This document shows, one piece after another, positions 1 to 5,053 of a stretch of DNA of 5,053 bases (the stretch's first letter is position 1; each line of letters opens with the position of its first letter). The position numbers and the translations under genes are program-made. The notes beneath the pieces are model-generated. The model searched no databases and had not been told where the DNA came from. It was given only the letters and a program-made list of their open reading frames with translations. The stretch comes from a virus (taxonomy: Duplodnaviria > Heunggongvirae > Uroviricota > Caudoviricetes): positions 1 through 5,053 of IMG/VR virus record IMGVR_UViG_2778261058_000018; one strand, 5' to 3'.

Positions 1-414
1 GCCAGTGACACCATAAAAATGGTTTACACCGGAGACGGGCGCGTGGTGTGGGTTGGTAAGGATGTGACAGGTATTGAACCCCGTAACGCCAGTGTTATTG
101 AAATTCCTGATATTACCGCTAACCGCCGCATTACCGCACCGGGTTACTGGTTTTACCGCAATGATGAATTTGTTTTCGACTACAAACTTAAAGCGGAAGA
201 TGAGCGTGATGCCCTCTTAAAACAGGTCAGCATCATGACCAGCGAATGGGAAAAAGACCTGCTGCTGGGATTAATCAGCGATGAAGACAGGGAAAAACTG
301 AAAGCGTACCGCATTTACGCGAAATCGCTGCAGGCGCTGGATTTCAGCACCATCACTGATAAAACCTCATATAACGCCATCAACTGGCCGGAGCGTCCCG
401 ATGCCGCAGCTTAA
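1..414 (+). CDS. tfa: Tail fibre assembly protein (Tfa-type), 5'-partial; C-terminal ~138 codons in window
   Basis: The reading frame is open from window position 1 (first ATG at 19), so the gene most likely begins upstream. The C-terminal residues ...LKAYRIYAKSLQALDFSTITD...INWPERP follow the conserved C-terminal pattern of lambda Tfa as I recall it (..LEAWKKYRVLLNRVDTST..IEWPAVP..). Stop TAA at 412-414 overlaps the next gene's ATG at 401, suggesting translational coupling. Confidence 0.75.
   Translation, partial: ASDTIKMVYTGDGRVVWVGKDVTGIEPRNASVIEIPDITANRRITAPGYWFYRNDEFVFDYKLKAEDERDALLKQVSIMTSEWEKDLLLGLISDEDREKLKAYRIYAKSLQALDFSTITDKTSYNAINWPERPDAAA
390..393 (+). promoter_or_regulatory. Shine-Dalgarno (GGAG) for stf
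   Basis: GGAG lies 7 nt upstream of ATG 401, inside the 3' end of the upstream tfa ORF. Confidence 0.5.
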
Positions 415-3400
415 AGGTGTGATTAAAACTCCCACGGGTGAACCGCTGGGCGGCGCAACCATTACACTGACCTCCCTGCACAACCGTGCAGGGATTCTGA
501 AAAGTGTTTTCAGCCATGTCACCACACAGAACGGGGAGTATGACTTCCCCGTTCTGCCGGGTGTGTACAGCGTTCGCCTGACACAAAGCACACAGCGCCT
601 TTCAGAAATCGGTGTCATCCGCGTTTATGAAGATTCAGCGGATGGTTCGCTGAATGATTTTCTGGGCGCAACCGATATTGACCTGCGCCCGGAAGCCCTG
701 AAGAAATTCGAAGAGCTGGCGCAACAGGCGCAGCAAAGCGCAGAAAAAGCAGGAGAGCACGCCACCGCTGCTGAACAGGCCCGTCAGGATACAGAAACGC
801 TCGCCGGGGAAATACAGCAGGATGCAGAAGAAATTGCAGGTAATGTGCAGAAAGCTGAAAAGCTGGCCTCTGAAACAAACCAGAATGCCGCCCGCGCAGA
901 GCAGGCCGTCAAGGATGCCGACCTGATAGTCCAGAAAGCGGTCGATAAACTTGGTGAAGCTGCAACGCTGACCGGCGAGGCAAAAGCCAGCGCAGAAGCG
1001 GCAGCAAAAAGCGAGCAGAACGCGAAACAGCACAGGGACGAGGCGCAACGGATAGTCGATGACCTGAAAGGAACCAGCGCCAGCACGACGCAAAAAGGCC
1101 TGGTGCAACTCTGTAGTGACACGGACAACGACAGCGAGGAACTGGCAGCCACACCAAAGGCTGTCAAAACCGTCATGGACGAGACGAAAACAAAAGCGCC
1201 ACTGGACAGCCCGGCGTTCACCGGCACGCCAACCACACCAACCCCACCGGACGATGCAGTCGGTCTGGAAACCGCGAACGCGGCATTTGTCCGCAAACTG
1301 CTTGCCGCACTGGTTGACTCGTCCCCGGATGCCCTGGACACGCTGAATGAGCTGGCAGCTGCGCTGGGCAATGACCCGGAGTTTGCGACAACAATCATGA
1401 ACGCGCTGGCGGGTAAACAACCACTCAGTGACGTGTTAACCGCAATCAGTAATCTGGAAGAACGGGCAGATAATCTTCTGTGCTTTAATCAGGACGGGAA
1501 TGCTTCACTGTCTCCGCTGTCAGAAAAAGCCCGGTCACTGCTGGCACAGGCCACAGTGGAAGCCATGCGTAATGAGCTTGAGCTGAAAAGCGCAGCGGTA
1601 AGGGACATACAGACAGACCTTTACGACAGCACGGAAGGTCGCGTTGCGCTGCCTGGTGCATTTGGTTACGGAATGACGGACGCCGGAGCACGTTCAATTA
1701 TTGCCAGCAATATAGCGGATATAGCCAGAACCGCTCACAACCTGCACCCGGGACGGTATTACACCTTTTCCACGCGAACGGAAGAAACCACCGGGATAAC
1801 AGAAATTATCTGGCTGGATAATGGCTGGGGCGACAAAACCAGCCAGACAGCAACAAAGCTGGTTCTGTTCTTTGGAAAAGACGGACGGATTCTTATGACC
1901 GTTCGTGGCGATAATATCTCCGCCCCGGTCACCTGGACGAATCTGACGCCACAACTGGGCAATGCAGCACAAAAGGATGCGCAGGAGAATATTTACGACC
2001 GCACCGAAGGCCGCCTGGCGATTCCTGGCATGTTCGGTTTCGGGAAAATATTTTCCAGTAGCGACAGAACTGAATTTAAATCAGGGACTGATTTTCTCAG
2101 GTGGGTAAAAACAGCAAAACCCGGTCGTTATACCGTATTTGCGGACACAAATGTGGTGGTACCTGGCATACAGACAAACGGTGTTATTGAAATTATCTGG
2201 CCACAACCTAAAACCAGCCCGAATGATGAGTATGCCTATAAGATAATTATTTATTACGGTGTTAATGGTCATATTTATTATAACCGTTGCGCGGTGTCAT
2301 CAGATGGTGGTTATCTGGTTGGCTGGGAAAACCTGAAGGTTGATGAGGCTTCACTCAGGGCACTGATTGAAGCCCGCGCACCACTGAAAAGTCCGGCACT
2401 GACCGGAACTCCGACAGCACCAACACCGCCGGATGATGCAGCAGGTAATGAAATAGCCAATGCGGAGTTTGTCCGCAAACTGCTCGCTGCGCTGGTTGGC
2501 TCATCACCGGAAGCCCTCGACACACTGAACGAGCTGGCGGCGGCACTGGGCAATGACCCGAACTTTGCGACAACGGTCACTAATGCACTGGCAGGTAAAC
2601 AGCCGCTTAATGATGTGTTAACGGCTGTCAGCCAGATAACACCGGAAGAAAACACGCTGCCTTATTTCAGCGCAGATGGCCGGATTTTACTGGCGCAGCT
2701 GTCAGAAAAAGCCCGCGCATTACTGGCACTGGACACACCTGAAGCCATGCGCACGGAGCTTGAGCTGAAAGCGGCTGCGACGATGGAACCCCAGAGCGAT
2801 ATCCGCGACCGCACACCGGGCAGGCTGGCACTGTCCGGCATGTATGGGTTCGGTCAGGCATTTGCCAGCACCGAAGCCCTGACATTTGACGGACAGGCCG
2901 ATTTTGCTGAATGGCTGAAAGAGGCCACGCCGGGGCGTTATGCGGTCAGCATTGCGGACTCTTCCACACTACTGGCAGGCACCACAAAATTTAACGGCAT
3001 CATTGATGTGATGTGGTCGCCCTTTGATAACGATGAATCAGACACAACGCGTAAATTCAAAATGCTGCTGTGTTTTAACCAGTATTACGAAGGTGAGCAC
3101 AGTATTCATCGCCTGACTTACCGCTGGAGTGGAAACAACTGGAATGCAACAGTAAGCCCTGTCATTTACGACGGCGATTCGCTGGCGTTCTTACTGTCCC
3201 GGACAGCAGGCTCAGGCTCATATTTCAAATACCCGGCAGTGGGTGTTCCGGTGCTGGCTGTTTATCGCGGAACAACTTCCGGGGATAAAGAAATCAAAAT
3301 TGGCCTGGGTGATGTGGTGCAGGGGTCACAACTGGGCGGAGTTAATCTTTCGTGCACAATATCTTCTGCCGGGCCTGGCTCTTACGGTTCAACACCAAGT

Positions 3401-3508
3401 GCAGGAGCAACAGGGTACACTTTTCCGGGGCGTTATATGGCGTTATCCGGGGTCAGGGACTCTTACGGAACAAGCGGTCGTATCTGCCTGTTTGTGCGCA
3501 TCGAGTAA
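401..3508 (+). CDS. stf: Side tail fibre protein, lambda Stf-type, 1035 aa, modular
   Basis: ATG at 401 with GGAG at 390-393 (7-nt spacer); 1035 codons; stop TAA at 3506-3508. The N-terminus (..GVIRVYEDSADGSLNDFLGATDIDLRPEALKKFEEL..) and the segment TTQKGLVQL..LAATPKAVKTVMDETKTKAPLDSPAFTGTPT..ALDTLNELAAALGNDPEFATT..NALAGKQP resemble lambda Stf as recalled. An Ala/Glu/Gln-rich coiled-coil-like shaft spans aa ~105-225. Long uninterrupted ORF with uniform coding character. Confidence 0.9.
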   Translation: MPQLKGVIKTPTGEPLGGATITLTSLHNRAGILKSVFSHVTTQNGEYDFPVLPGVYSVRLTQSTQRLSEIGVIRVYEDSADGSLNDFLGATDIDLRPEALKKFEELAQQAQQSAEKAGEHATAAEQARQDTETLAGEIQQDAEEIAGNVQKAEKLASETNQNAARAEQAVKDADLIVQKAVDKLGEAATLTGEAKASAEAAAKSEQNAKQHRDEAQRIVDDLKGTSASTTQKGLVQLCSDTDNDSEELAATPKAVKTVMDETKTKAPLDSPAFTGTPTTPTPPDDAVGLETANAAFVRKLLAALVDSSPDALDTLNELAAALGNDPEFATTIMNALAGKQPLSDVLTAISNLEERADNLLCFNQDGNASLSPLSEKARSLLAQATVEAMRNELELKSAAVRDIQTDLYDSTEGRVALPGAFGYGMTDAGARSIIASNIADIARTAHNLHPGRYYTFSTRTEETTGITEIIWLDNGWGDKTSQTATKLVLFFGKDGRILMTVRGDNISAPVTWTNLTPQLGNAAQKDAQENIYDRTEGRLAIPGMFGFGKIFSSSDRTEFKSGTDFLRWVKTAKPGRYTVFADTNVVVPGIQTNGVIEIIWPQPKTSPNDEYAYKIIIYYGVNGHIYYNRCAVSSDGGYLVGWENLKVDEASLRALIEARAPLKSPALTGTPTAPTPPDDAAGNEIANAEFVRKLLAALVGSSPEALDTLNELAAALGNDPNFATTVTNALAGKQPLNDVLTAVSQITPEENTLPYFSADGRILLAQLSEKARALLALDTPEAMRTELELKAAATMEPQSDIRDRTPGRLALSGMYGFGQAFASTEALTFDGQADFAEWLKEATPGRYAVSIADSSTLLAGTTKFNGIIDVMWSPFDNDESDTTRKFKMLLCFNQYYEGEHSIHRLTYRWSGNNWNATVSPVIYDGDSLAFLLSRTAGSGSYFKYPAVGVPVLAVYRGTTSGDKEIKIGLGDVVQGSQLGGVNLSCTISSAGPGSYGSTPSAGATGYTFPGRYMALSGVRDSYGTSGRICLFVRIE
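1196..1450 (+). repeat. Intragenic direct repeat copy 1 (Stf collar segment, aa 266-350)
   Basis: In-frame duplicate of 2378-2632. Identical nucleotide runs include tttgtccgcaaactgct, ctgggcaatgacccg and tttgcgacaac. About 70 of 85 residues are identical by my hand count (APLDSPAFTGTPTTPTPPDD... vs APLKSPALTGTPTAPTPPDD...). Confidence 0.7.
2378..2632 (+). repeat. Intragenic direct repeat copy 2 (Stf collar segment, aa 660-744)
   Basis: Same frame, 1182 nt downstream of copy 1. Weaker similarity continues for ~70 further codons after each copy (..LSEKAR.LLA....EAMR.ELELK.. then D.T.GR.AL.G..G.G). Confidence 0.7.
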
Positions 3509-3522: not shown

Positions 3523-4098
3523 ATGAAAATCAGAGCGGTAAAAGGCATCAGAAACGCGCATTATCTCGAAAATGGTGCGGTTGACTGCGAGGTGCTATTT
3601 GAAGGTGAAAGGGAATTCGTCCCGTATACCGCCATGCAGGACGATAGCGCCCCGACAGGCCAGCGCATCTGGGAAGAGTTACAGAGCGGCAAATGGGGCG
3701 AAATCGCCCCGTTCACCGTCACGCCGGAACTTATCGCAGCGGCAAAAGATGCCAAAAAGCGGGAAATCGAGGTGTGGCGCACAGAACAGGAAGCGAAGCC
3801 GTTCACGTTCGAATGGAACGGCCACATCTGGAACGCTGGCCCCGACTCACTGGCTCGCCTTTATCCGGTGGTGATGGCATCAAAATCCGATATGGCATGC
3901 GACGTTATGACGTGGGGTGACGCCGATAATCAACAGGTGAAACTGTCGATACAGGAACTGGAAGAACTGGCGACAGCAATGGCGCAGGCACAGGTCGATC
4001 GCAATGACGAGATTTATCAGCGCCAGCGTGAAATGAAGGAGCAGCTTTCCCAGCTGTCCATACTCGACGAGGTGAGAGCGTTAACTGTCGGTGATTAA
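3523..4098 (+). CDS. Putative tail-fibre-associated accessory or chaperone-like protein, 191 aa; function uncertain
   Basis: ATG at 3523 with AGGA 8 nt upstream; starts 14 nt after the stf stop; stop TAA at 4096-4098. Position directly 3' of a fibre gene and size fit a fibre assembly chaperone. However, the C-terminus (..QLSQLSILDEVRALTVGD) lacks the Tfa-type motif seen in the upstream gene, so it would be a different family (possibly DUF4376-like; cannot be verified without an HMM search). Confidence 0.6.
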   Translation: MKIRAVKGIRNAHYLENGAVDCEVLFEGEREFVPYTAMQDDSAPTGQRIWEELQSGKWGEIAPFTVTPELIAAAKDAKKREIEVWRTEQEAKPFTFEWNGHIWNAGPDSLARLYPVVMASKSDMACDVMTWGDADNQQVKLSIQELEELATAMAQAQVDRNDEIYQRQREMKEQLSQLSILDEVRALTVGD

Positions 4099-4120
4099 AT
4101 AATCAGTTTGTATAGTTTAT

Positions 4121-4148
4121 GACGATCGATAACATCATATCGATCGTC
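4121..4148. promoter_or_regulatory. Perfect 11-bp inverted repeat (GACGATCGATA-acatca-TATCGATCGTC) carrying two GATC sites; candidate Dam-sensitive operator and/or weak terminator
   Basis: Read directly from the sequence: arms 4121-4131 and 4138-4148, GATC at 4124-4127 and 4142-4145. Sits in the 123-nt gap between the accessory ORF stop (4098) and com. Followed by GGTTTG rather than a strong T-tract. Confidence 0.4.
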
Positions 4149-4212
4149 GGTTTGCATCGGTTGTGATTAAATACCCCCAGCCCTCCGGGCGCTCATGTCT
4201 GGTTATTACACA

Positions 4213-4218
4213 GGGGGA
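4213..4218 (+). promoter_or_regulatory. Shine-Dalgarno (GGGGGA) for com
   Basis: GGGGGA lies 3 nt upstream of ATG 4222. Confidence 0.5.
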
Positions 4219-4221
4219 ATC

Positions 4222-4407
4222 ATGGACTCTGTTCGCTGTAAAAACTGCAATAAATTACTGTTTAAAGGAGGTTTTAAGCATATAGAAATTAAATGTCCTC
4301 GCTGTAAACGTTACATTGTCATATCGAATGCCAAAGAGCATCCCACGGAGCTGTATTGTGGGAAAAGAGAAGAAATCACGCATTCTGACAAAACCCTGCG
4401 TTATTGA
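4222..4407 (+). CDS. com: Com-like zinc-ribbon translational activator of mom, 61 aa
   Basis: ATG at 4222 preceded by GGGGGA at 4213-4218; stop TGA at 4405-4407. Product [61 protein letters not shown] has paired CxxC motifs (C6/C9, C25/C28) and closely resembles Mu Com as I recall it. The track's longer ORF from ATG 4195 has no ribosome-binding site, so 4222 is preferred. Confidence 0.85.
4341..4363 (+). promoter_or_regulatory. mRNA stem-loop occluding the putative mom SD and GTG start (candidate Com-responsive translation initiation region)
   Basis: UCCCACGG (4341-4348) can pair with UUGUGGGA (4356-4363): six Watson-Crick pairs plus two G-U, loop AGCUGUA. The stem includes GGAG 4347-4350 and GTG 4358-4360. 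Confidence 0.4.
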
Positions 4408-5053
4408 GTATGAAGGCCATATTGTCGGCTATGGTTCAAAGGAGCTGCGTGTTGAAACCATATCCTGCTGGCTGGCCCGCACAATCATTCAGACAAAGCA
4501 TTATTCCCGCCGTTTTGTGAATAACTCCTACCTGCATCTGGGCGTATTCAGCGGACGTGATCTGGTTGGTGTTCTTCAGTGGGGATATGCCCTTAACCCC
4601 AACTCAGGGCGCCGGGTCGTGCTTGAAACGGATAACCGGGGCTATATGGAACTGAACCGTATGTGGTTACACGATGACATGCCCCGCAACTCTGAATCAC
4701 GGGCCATCAGCTACGCGCTGAAAACCATCAGGTTACTGTATCCGTCAGTGGAGTGGGTTCAGTCCTTTGCAGACGAACGTTGCGGACGTGCAGGCGTGGT
4801 ATATCAGGCGTCGAATTTTGATTTTATTGGCAGCCATGAAAGCACGTTCTACGAGCTGGACGGCGAGTGGTATCACGAGATAACGATGAACGCGATTAAG
4901 CGTGGAGGGCAACGAGGCGTGTATTTGCGGGCTAATAAGGAGCGGGCCGTGGTACACAAATTTAATCAATATCGCTACATCAGATTCCTGAATAAGCGTG
5001 CAAAAAAGCGCCTAAACACCAAGCTATTCAGGATTCAGCCATACCCGAAGTGA
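4358..5053 (+). CDS. mom: Mom-like DNA modification protein (adenine N6-acetamido/methylcarbamoyl-type modification, anti-restriction)
   Basis: The frame is open from 4316 (TTG) to stop TGA at 5051-5053 and overlaps the 3' end of com in a different frame, which is the Mu com-mom arrangement. Preferred start is GTG 4358 (GGAG 4347-4350, 7-nt spacer), giving 231 aa. Alternatives are ATG 4328 (no SD) or TTG 4316. The translation (..[36 protein letters not shown]...[20 protein letters not shown]...) matches what I recall of Mu Mom. Confidence 0.85.

Follow-up and report, generated by a model that had tools for sequence, protein, structure and literature searches.

The stretch of DNA analyzed here (5,053 nucleotides in total, hereafter the window) corresponds to the right-hand end of a Mu-like prophage that is 99% identical to one found in flhA of E. 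coli ETEC1732; the element is carried by 47 of the 5426 complete E. coli genomes. The window encodes, in this order, a tail fibre protein (401-3508), the tail fibre assembly protein Tfa, Com and Mom (Table 1), and both the invertible G segment and gin are absent from the ETEC1732-type prophage locus. The Mom protein is 98-99% identical to the Mom proteins of the Mu family (97.8% for SfMu and Mu_3F6, 98.7% for Yersinia phage vB_YpM_23). A Shine-Dalgarno sequence, GGGGGA, is located ahead of com, at 4213-4218. Two starts can be considered for mom, namely the ATG at 4328 that is annotated in RefSeq and the GTG at 4358 that is the homologue of the Mu-type start. The tail fibre gene contains an internal duplication (1196-1449 and 2378-2631, two segments of 254 nt that are 78% identical and lie 1182 nt apart), which appears at the protein level as a recurring ...TGTPT.PTPPDDA...LDTLNELAAALGNDP.FATT... 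module.

Table 1. Genes and sequence features from tfa to the right end of the window
Feature	Coordinates	Strand	Basis or remark
tfa, DUF4376 tail fibre assembly gene, last of the tail operon	3523..4098	+	Pfam DUF4376, 6.8e-16; annotation
ATAG element	4112..4115	+	12 nt before GATC1; the conserved module has its left edge here
OxyR-like candidate operator	4112..4148		37-bp register of the Toledano motif ATAGnTnnnAnCTAT-N7-ATAGnTnnnAnCTAT; sequence match
Left palindrome arm, GACGATCGATA	4121..4131	+	1 variable column in 11 among 16 distinct window-type sequences
GATC1, Dam target	4124..4127		Counterpart of Mu GATC1 (~-87 in Mu)
Palindrome spacer (loop), ACATCA	4132..4137	+	3 of 6 columns vary in the window type
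Right palindrome arm, TATCGATCGTC	4138..4148	+	0 variable columns among 16 distinct window-type sequences
GATC2, Dam target	4142..4145		Counterpart of Mu GATC2 (~-69 in Mu)
CATC, degenerate counterpart of Mu GATC3	4155..4158		13 bp after GATC2
Activator-box-like TTGT-N6-ATAC (putative)	4161..4174	+	Aligned with the Mu C-binding dyad TTAT-N6-ATAA
Candidate -10 hexamer zone for com-mom	4195..4209	+	By spacing and sequence
com, zinc-ribbon translational activator, 61 aa	4222..4407	+	Pfam Zn_ribbon_Com, 2.5e-7; PHROG 13819 gpCom, 4.3e-43; RefSeq annotation
mom, DNA adenine modification enzyme	4358..5053	+	PHROG 1384, 1.8e-83; annotation

The interval between tfa and com contains a perfect inverted repeat of 11 bp, which starts 23 nt past the tfa stop codon and consists of two 100% complementary arms separated by a 6-nt gap. 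Among the perfect inverted repeats with a loop of 3-12 nt, this palindrome is the longest in the window, and an inverted repeat of at least 11 bp was obtained in only 3 of 300 dinucleotide-preserving shuffles. Each arm harbors one GATC, and both GATCs are embedded in CGATCG which is itself overlapped by ATCGAT. The first-pass annotation, in which this element was singled out as a candidate region of methylation-dependent control, had placed the palindrome and both sites correctly throughout.

The window contains 4 GATCs compared to the 15.3 expected, and if four such sites were placed at random, the probability that any pair falls within 18 nt would be 0.04. In the closest complete prophage, the density of GATC is ~1.1 per kb as opposed to ~5.5 per kb in the adjacent host DNA, that is, the prophage is strongly depleted of GATC relative to the host flank. 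Given this depletion, the retention of a tight pair of GATCs is conspicuous. In the copy of the prophage from ETEC1732 (L002, positions 1-21100), the 6.4 kb upstream of window position 3997 include no GATC at all.

A blastn search against phages detected no homology to Mu upstream of window position 4232. Such homology emerged when the gap was explicitly aligned to the Mu sequence that precedes com: window positions 4110-4175 are clearly collinear with the Mu DNA upstream of Pmom (aligned stretches: Mu, CATATAGAAAACGACGATCGAATCAATTAAATCGATCGGTAATACAGATCGATTATGCCCCAATAACC; window, TGTATAGTTTATGACGATCGATAACATCATATCGATCGTCGGTTTGCATCGGTTGTGATTAAATACC). The two regions share the location directly upstream of the com-mom operon, the ATAG element 12 nt before GATC1, the CGATCG context of both GATC1 and GATC2, the spacing of exactly 18 bp between these sites and their distances, 47 and 29 bp, from the ATA(A/C) of the activator box. 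As judged from this alignment, the palindrome is homologous, beyond being analogous, to the distal regulatory region of the Mu mom operon. The proposal that the region is gated by Dam methylation in the manner of Mu mom is thus supported by a base-for-base correspondence that extends to GATC context, GATC spacing and box distance.

The differences from Mu at the predicted operator are limited. Mu GATC3, located 13 bp after GATC2, is replaced by CATC in the window, which therefore has two GATCs instead of the three clustered within ~43 bp in Mu, whereas the palindrome, perfect over 11 bp in the window, is represented in Mu by a 7-bp core around the same two sites. The first-pass annotation considered the architecture to differ from that of Mu in that two sites lie in a palindrome; because the same two GATCs lie in the 7-bp core palindrome of Mu, the architecture is not really different at this point. 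Relative to Mu, the window type retains both of these sites, in a palindrome that has grown to 11 bp, and GATC3 is the sole site to have been lost. The element is wholly non-coding in the window, in contrast to Mu where the gin stop codon (L001, positions 872-874) lies between GATC1 and GATC2, so that the last gin codons overlap the operator; a stretch that is partly gin-coding in Mu is accordingly kept as non-coding DNA in the window type. In Mu, the final codons of gin and the Dam/OxyR operator share sequence.

The host repressor OxyR, which acts at Mu mom, was formerly called MomR. According to PMC7549136, which cites Sun and Hattman 1996, Mu mom has three GATCs in a 43-bp upstream region, and methylation of these sites prevents OxyR binding. 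Pmom is described as governed by Dam and OxyR (PMC3378877), and mom and agn43 are both under Dam and OxyR control (PMC2909390, PMC13337833). Taking position 947 of the Mu sequence (L001) as the start site, as derived from the published coordinates of an oligonucleotide spanning -58 to +20, the Mu GATCs are located at about -87, -69 and -56, and the activator box at -50 to -37.

The OxyR consensus of Toledano, when placed on 4112-4148, agrees with the window at 12 of the 20 specified positions, equal to the corresponding stretch of Mu; averaged across the 35 distinct homologues, no other register scores higher (mean of 12.2 compared to a background of ~5). A second register, which starts 3 nt before GATC1 and spans all three Mu GATCs, yields 13 matches in Mu and 9 in the window. 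The OxyR consensus is degenerate, and several registers have nearly equal scores because of the repetitive ATCGAT content. The axis of the palindrome (4134/4135) is offset from the center of the best register (4130), so that the OxyR motif on its own does not account for the additional dyad symmetry.

The OxyR/Dam region of agn43 (flu) from strain K-12, which has been established experimentally and belongs to a chromosomal gene for an outer membrane protein with three GATCs and heritable ON/OFF states, also aligns with the window and Mu sequences. It shares the landmarks ATAG, ACGATC, ATCGATCG and (G/C)ATCG; its GATCs lie 19 and 13 bp apart, compared to 18 and 13 bp in the phage alignment, and the 10-mer TATCGATCGT is identical in the right arm of the palindrome and around the second agn43 GATC (GATC-II). 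The agn43 operator differs in that it adjoins its own promoter; for Mu mom, phase variation has been reported as unknown (PMC2909390). A looser likeness exists with gtr of P22 and Salmonella and with opvAB, operons carried by phages or acquired horizontally in which the gating GATCs lie within OxyR half-sites, although neither shows sequence homology to the window element. In the gtr-type switches, GATC pairs 13 bp apart are located within one OxyR half-site (PMC2909390), similar to GATC2 and GATC3 of Mu. However, the gtr arrangement comprises four GATCs in two pairs, three half-sites and alternative activating and repressing OxyR positions, whereas the window has the 18-bp pair alone.

For the analysis of conservation, 47 com-mom upstream regions were collected from IMG/VR, two genome contigs (one from Scandinavium and one from an Enterobacteriaceae) and Mu; 35 of these are distinct and informative. 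These fall into two main sequence types. In the Mu type, all three GATCs are present, together with a T6 run and a -10 hexamer that reads TAAGAT; the window type has two GATCs, with CATC at the third site, and its interval before com is shorter by 11 bp. The GATC2 core is present in all 35 distinct sequences and the 18-bp spacing between GATC1 and GATC2 in 34 of them, whereas the flanks around the GATC cores vary. Site 3 is found at the 13-bp spacing wherever it is present, including sequences with strongly diverged flanks (L008, L048 and L049); it is CATC in every window-type sequence and GATC in the Mu type as well as in L008, L047, L048 and L049. Among the 16 distinct window-type sequences, variable columns account for 1 of 22 in the arms compared to 44 of 100 in the rest of 4100-4221 (Fisher p = 0.0004); from these counts, the arms evidently evolve under purifying selection. 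Given that half of the spacer columns vary and that position 4132, the first spacer base, is occupied by all four nucleotides, the pattern is that of conserved arms around a free center. The ATAG element is invariant in all 16 distinct window-type sequences and at least 90% conserved over the 47 regions.

Dyad symmetry is maintained in 89% of the cells across the compared sequences, and changes on both sides were detected, namely GTCGATCA/TGATCGAC in L049 and AATCGATCGATA/TATTGATCGATT in L008, the independent events being few. The module joins different upstream genes, and the left boundary of homology is located just before ATAG; judging by this distribution, the module travels with com-mom independently of the upstream neighbors. 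In Pseudomonas phage JD024, the host of which we take to lack Dam, com-mom is present and the 138 nt upstream of com contain no GATC. A more distant relative of Mom is encoded in Aeromonas phage pAEv1818, where mom lies behind a Q antiterminator gene and a terminator-like element recognized by eye (a G+C-rich dyad followed by a T run). This mom gene is accompanied neither by com nor by a GATC cluster, and hence the operator appears to be specific to the com-mom arrangement.

Other variants of the locus were observed. In IMG/VR contig L051 (~935-1105), a gix-like crossover sequence, TTCCTGTAAACCAAGGTTTTAGATAA, lies beside a 5'-truncated mom, which indicates a rearranged locus without com or the predicted operator. 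An exact 11-nt direct repeat, GTGATTAAATA, is present at 4091-4101, over the tfa stop codon, and at 4163-4173, over the activator-box-like site, so placed that the two copies bracket the candidate operator. In a decayed prophage within NZ_CP182374.1 (L083), com-mom has been deleted with a left breakpoint at about window position 4167, within the second copy of this repeat. Between the box and com, there is a G+C-rich dyad, GCCC-TCC-GGGC (4180-4190), which is kept in all window-type sequences and reads GCCCT-C-AGGGC in L039; the scan calls it as a minus-strand terminator-like site.

The alignment places the real differences from Mu downstream of the predicted operator. The activator-box-like site is 47 bp from GATC1, as in Mu, and the distance from the box to the com start codon is 11 bp shorter than in Mu. 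The arrangement characteristic of C-dependent promoters (an ATAA box with a TAnnnT -10 hexamer 27-28 nt further downstream) was found in Mu Plys, PI, PP and Pmom and in the divergent sequences L007, L008, L047 and L049, but the window deviates from it: the canonical -10 spacing yields TCTGGT or CTGGTT. A TATTAC hexamer is located at 4204-4209 (TATTAT in L044 and L045), and some relatives have TATCCT at offset 25. The promoter and terminator scan of the gap between tfa and com made no plus-strand call. In place of the CATAAT of the divergent momP2 promoter of Mu, the window has GGTTGTG. The other difference from Mu listed in the first-pass annotation, the lack of a T6 run, was borne out, as no T run in 4149-4221, between the palindrome and com, exceeds three nucleotides.

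A comparable difference applies to the activator itself. The ETEC1732 prophage encodes a single Mor-family protein, which is 63% identical to Mu Mor and 32% identical to C; no recognizable C gene was found in this prophage, and the open reading frame in the C position has no family match. A method that picks up only fairly close relatives recovered relatives of C from all 7 long viral contigs of the Mu type and from none of the 8 long ones of the window type. In the ETEC1732 prophage, a Mor-box-like, terminator-like dyad, AGCCGGTAAATCCGGCTTTTTTT, occurs in exact copies ahead of lys and ahead of the head protease gene (L005, 12931-12947 and 20653-20669). These copies are followed after 10 nt by CACCAT or CATACT and resemble the Mor-binding dyad of the Mu middle promoter (Mu L006, ~679-705), which suggests that late genes of this prophage may be transcribed from Mor-type promoters, without C. 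Because the window lacks this Mor-box-like dyad, a Mor-type promoter ahead of com was rejected. The motif ATACCCC(C)[AG]GCCC, located at window positions 4171-4183 by the com box, recurs at L005 12762, in the open reading frame upstream of lys, and at L002 10408, in the DNA-circularization gene, the gene that holds the P promoter of Mu. As a late-promoter box this motif is no more than a lead: the positions are intragenic and the match is not significant.

Taken in this context, the palindrome is most probably (we put the probability at about 0.7) the core of a Dam-sensitive OxyR operator that would keep com-mom silent as long as its GATCs are unmethylated. Under this scenario, when the adenines of GATC1 and GATC2 are unmethylated, OxyR would bind approximately 4112-4148, possibly extending to ~4157, and the bound protein would keep transcription of com-mom off; once both sites are methylated by Dam, OxyR would be excluded and the operon could be transcribed late in lytic growth. 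The OxyR binding, the Dam dependence and the direction of the effect are extrapolated from the experiments on Mu mom and agn43. The window-type element is a recognizable variant of the known Mu switch and not a new kind of element.

Alternatively, the palindrome could act at the RNA level, as a hairpin or an intrinsic terminator that would end or attenuate the head-tail operon transcript after tfa and thus insulate the toxic com-mom pair from late read-through. The position just beyond the tfa stop codon, the stability of the predicted RNA stem (-16.5 to -18 kcal/mol; z = -2.9 to -4.5 compared to shuffled sequences), the scan result of no other plus-strand terminator in the interval between tfa and com, the greater length of the palindrome in the gin-less window type than in Mu, and the pairing kept across lineages by some of the both-sided changes are all compatible with such a role. 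However, an intrinsic terminator combines a G+C-rich stem with a U tract, and here the stem is present whereas the U tract is absent: the tail that follows, GGUUUGCA, contains 3 U in 8 and was not called as a terminator by the scan, so that the weak terminator entertained as an alternative in the initial reading is not supported. Furthermore, the Mu equivalent is a 7-bp stem of -8.5 kcal/mol located partly inside gin, and the universally conserved features are the GATC cores and the 18-bp spacing rather than the strength of the stem. The Rfam search produced no match, and a tRNA search was empty as well. On balance, a function as a terminator appears unlikely.

The other alternatives retain the DNA-level role of the element. 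A promoter could be embedded in the palindrome itself (-35 TTGTAT at 4108-4113; -10 TAACAT at 4130-4135; start near GATC2), in which case Dam and OxyR would act on it directly, as in agn43 where the OxyR site adjoins the promoter (PMC13337833), and such a promoter could replace a lost C-dependent one. The hexamers, with their 16-nt spacer, are indeed present as originally drawn; the window type shows no variation at the key -10 positions (T4130, A4131 and T4135), in contrast to the middle positions, which vary, and both the non-canonical -10 spacing downstream and the failure to find a C gene are in line with a replacement. Nevertheless, reading the hexamers as a promoter is not supported and, in our estimate, improbable: they agree with the consensus at 7 of 12 positions, under the scan threshold, in an AT-rich region where many -10-like hexamers arise by chance, TAACAT is replaced by ATCAAT in the Mu-type sequences, the drawn -35 overlaps the conserved ATAG element, and the invariant -10 bases are equally accounted for by the arms and the OxyR element. 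The offset between the dyad axis and the center of the OxyR motif, together with the paired changes that partly maintain symmetry in L008 and L049, could instead point to a site for another dyad-symmetric protein of the host or the phage that overlaps the GATCs, such as Fis or a prophage regulator, with OxyR binding being secondary or absent; according to PMC3378877, a Fis footprint in Mu extends from -107 to -84 and hence overlaps ATAG and GATC1. This possibility seems quite improbable, given that no candidate protein was found for a dyad site other than that of OxyR, that the compensatory events include few independent ones, and that OxyR binding to the homologous Mu DNA has been experimentally established according to literature cited in PMC7549136, PMC3378877 and PMC2909390.

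Returning to the Dam-sensitive OxyR operator, a more speculative and rather doubtful extension of this interpretation concerns the prophages that lack both C and gin. In these prophages, com-mom may have lost the C-dependent core promoter while keeping the Dam/OxyR module, strengthened to a perfect palindrome, as the principal switch, which would act either on an embedded promoter in the style of agn43 or as a roadblock that, depending on methylation, would stop transcripts reading through from the tail operon. The expression of Mom could then be heterogeneous or phase-variable among lysogens.

For the evolution of the Mu family, these observations imply that the Dam/OxyR part of the Mu mom circuit is an evolutionarily separable module, which appears to be under strong purifying selection despite the swap of the upstream gene, the loss of gin and the apparent loss of the C-dependent promoter core. 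Otherwise, the element is the expected regulatory element of a known operon. The natural variant with two GATCs bears on the number of methylation sites that OxyR would need to discriminate between methylated and unmethylated DNA.
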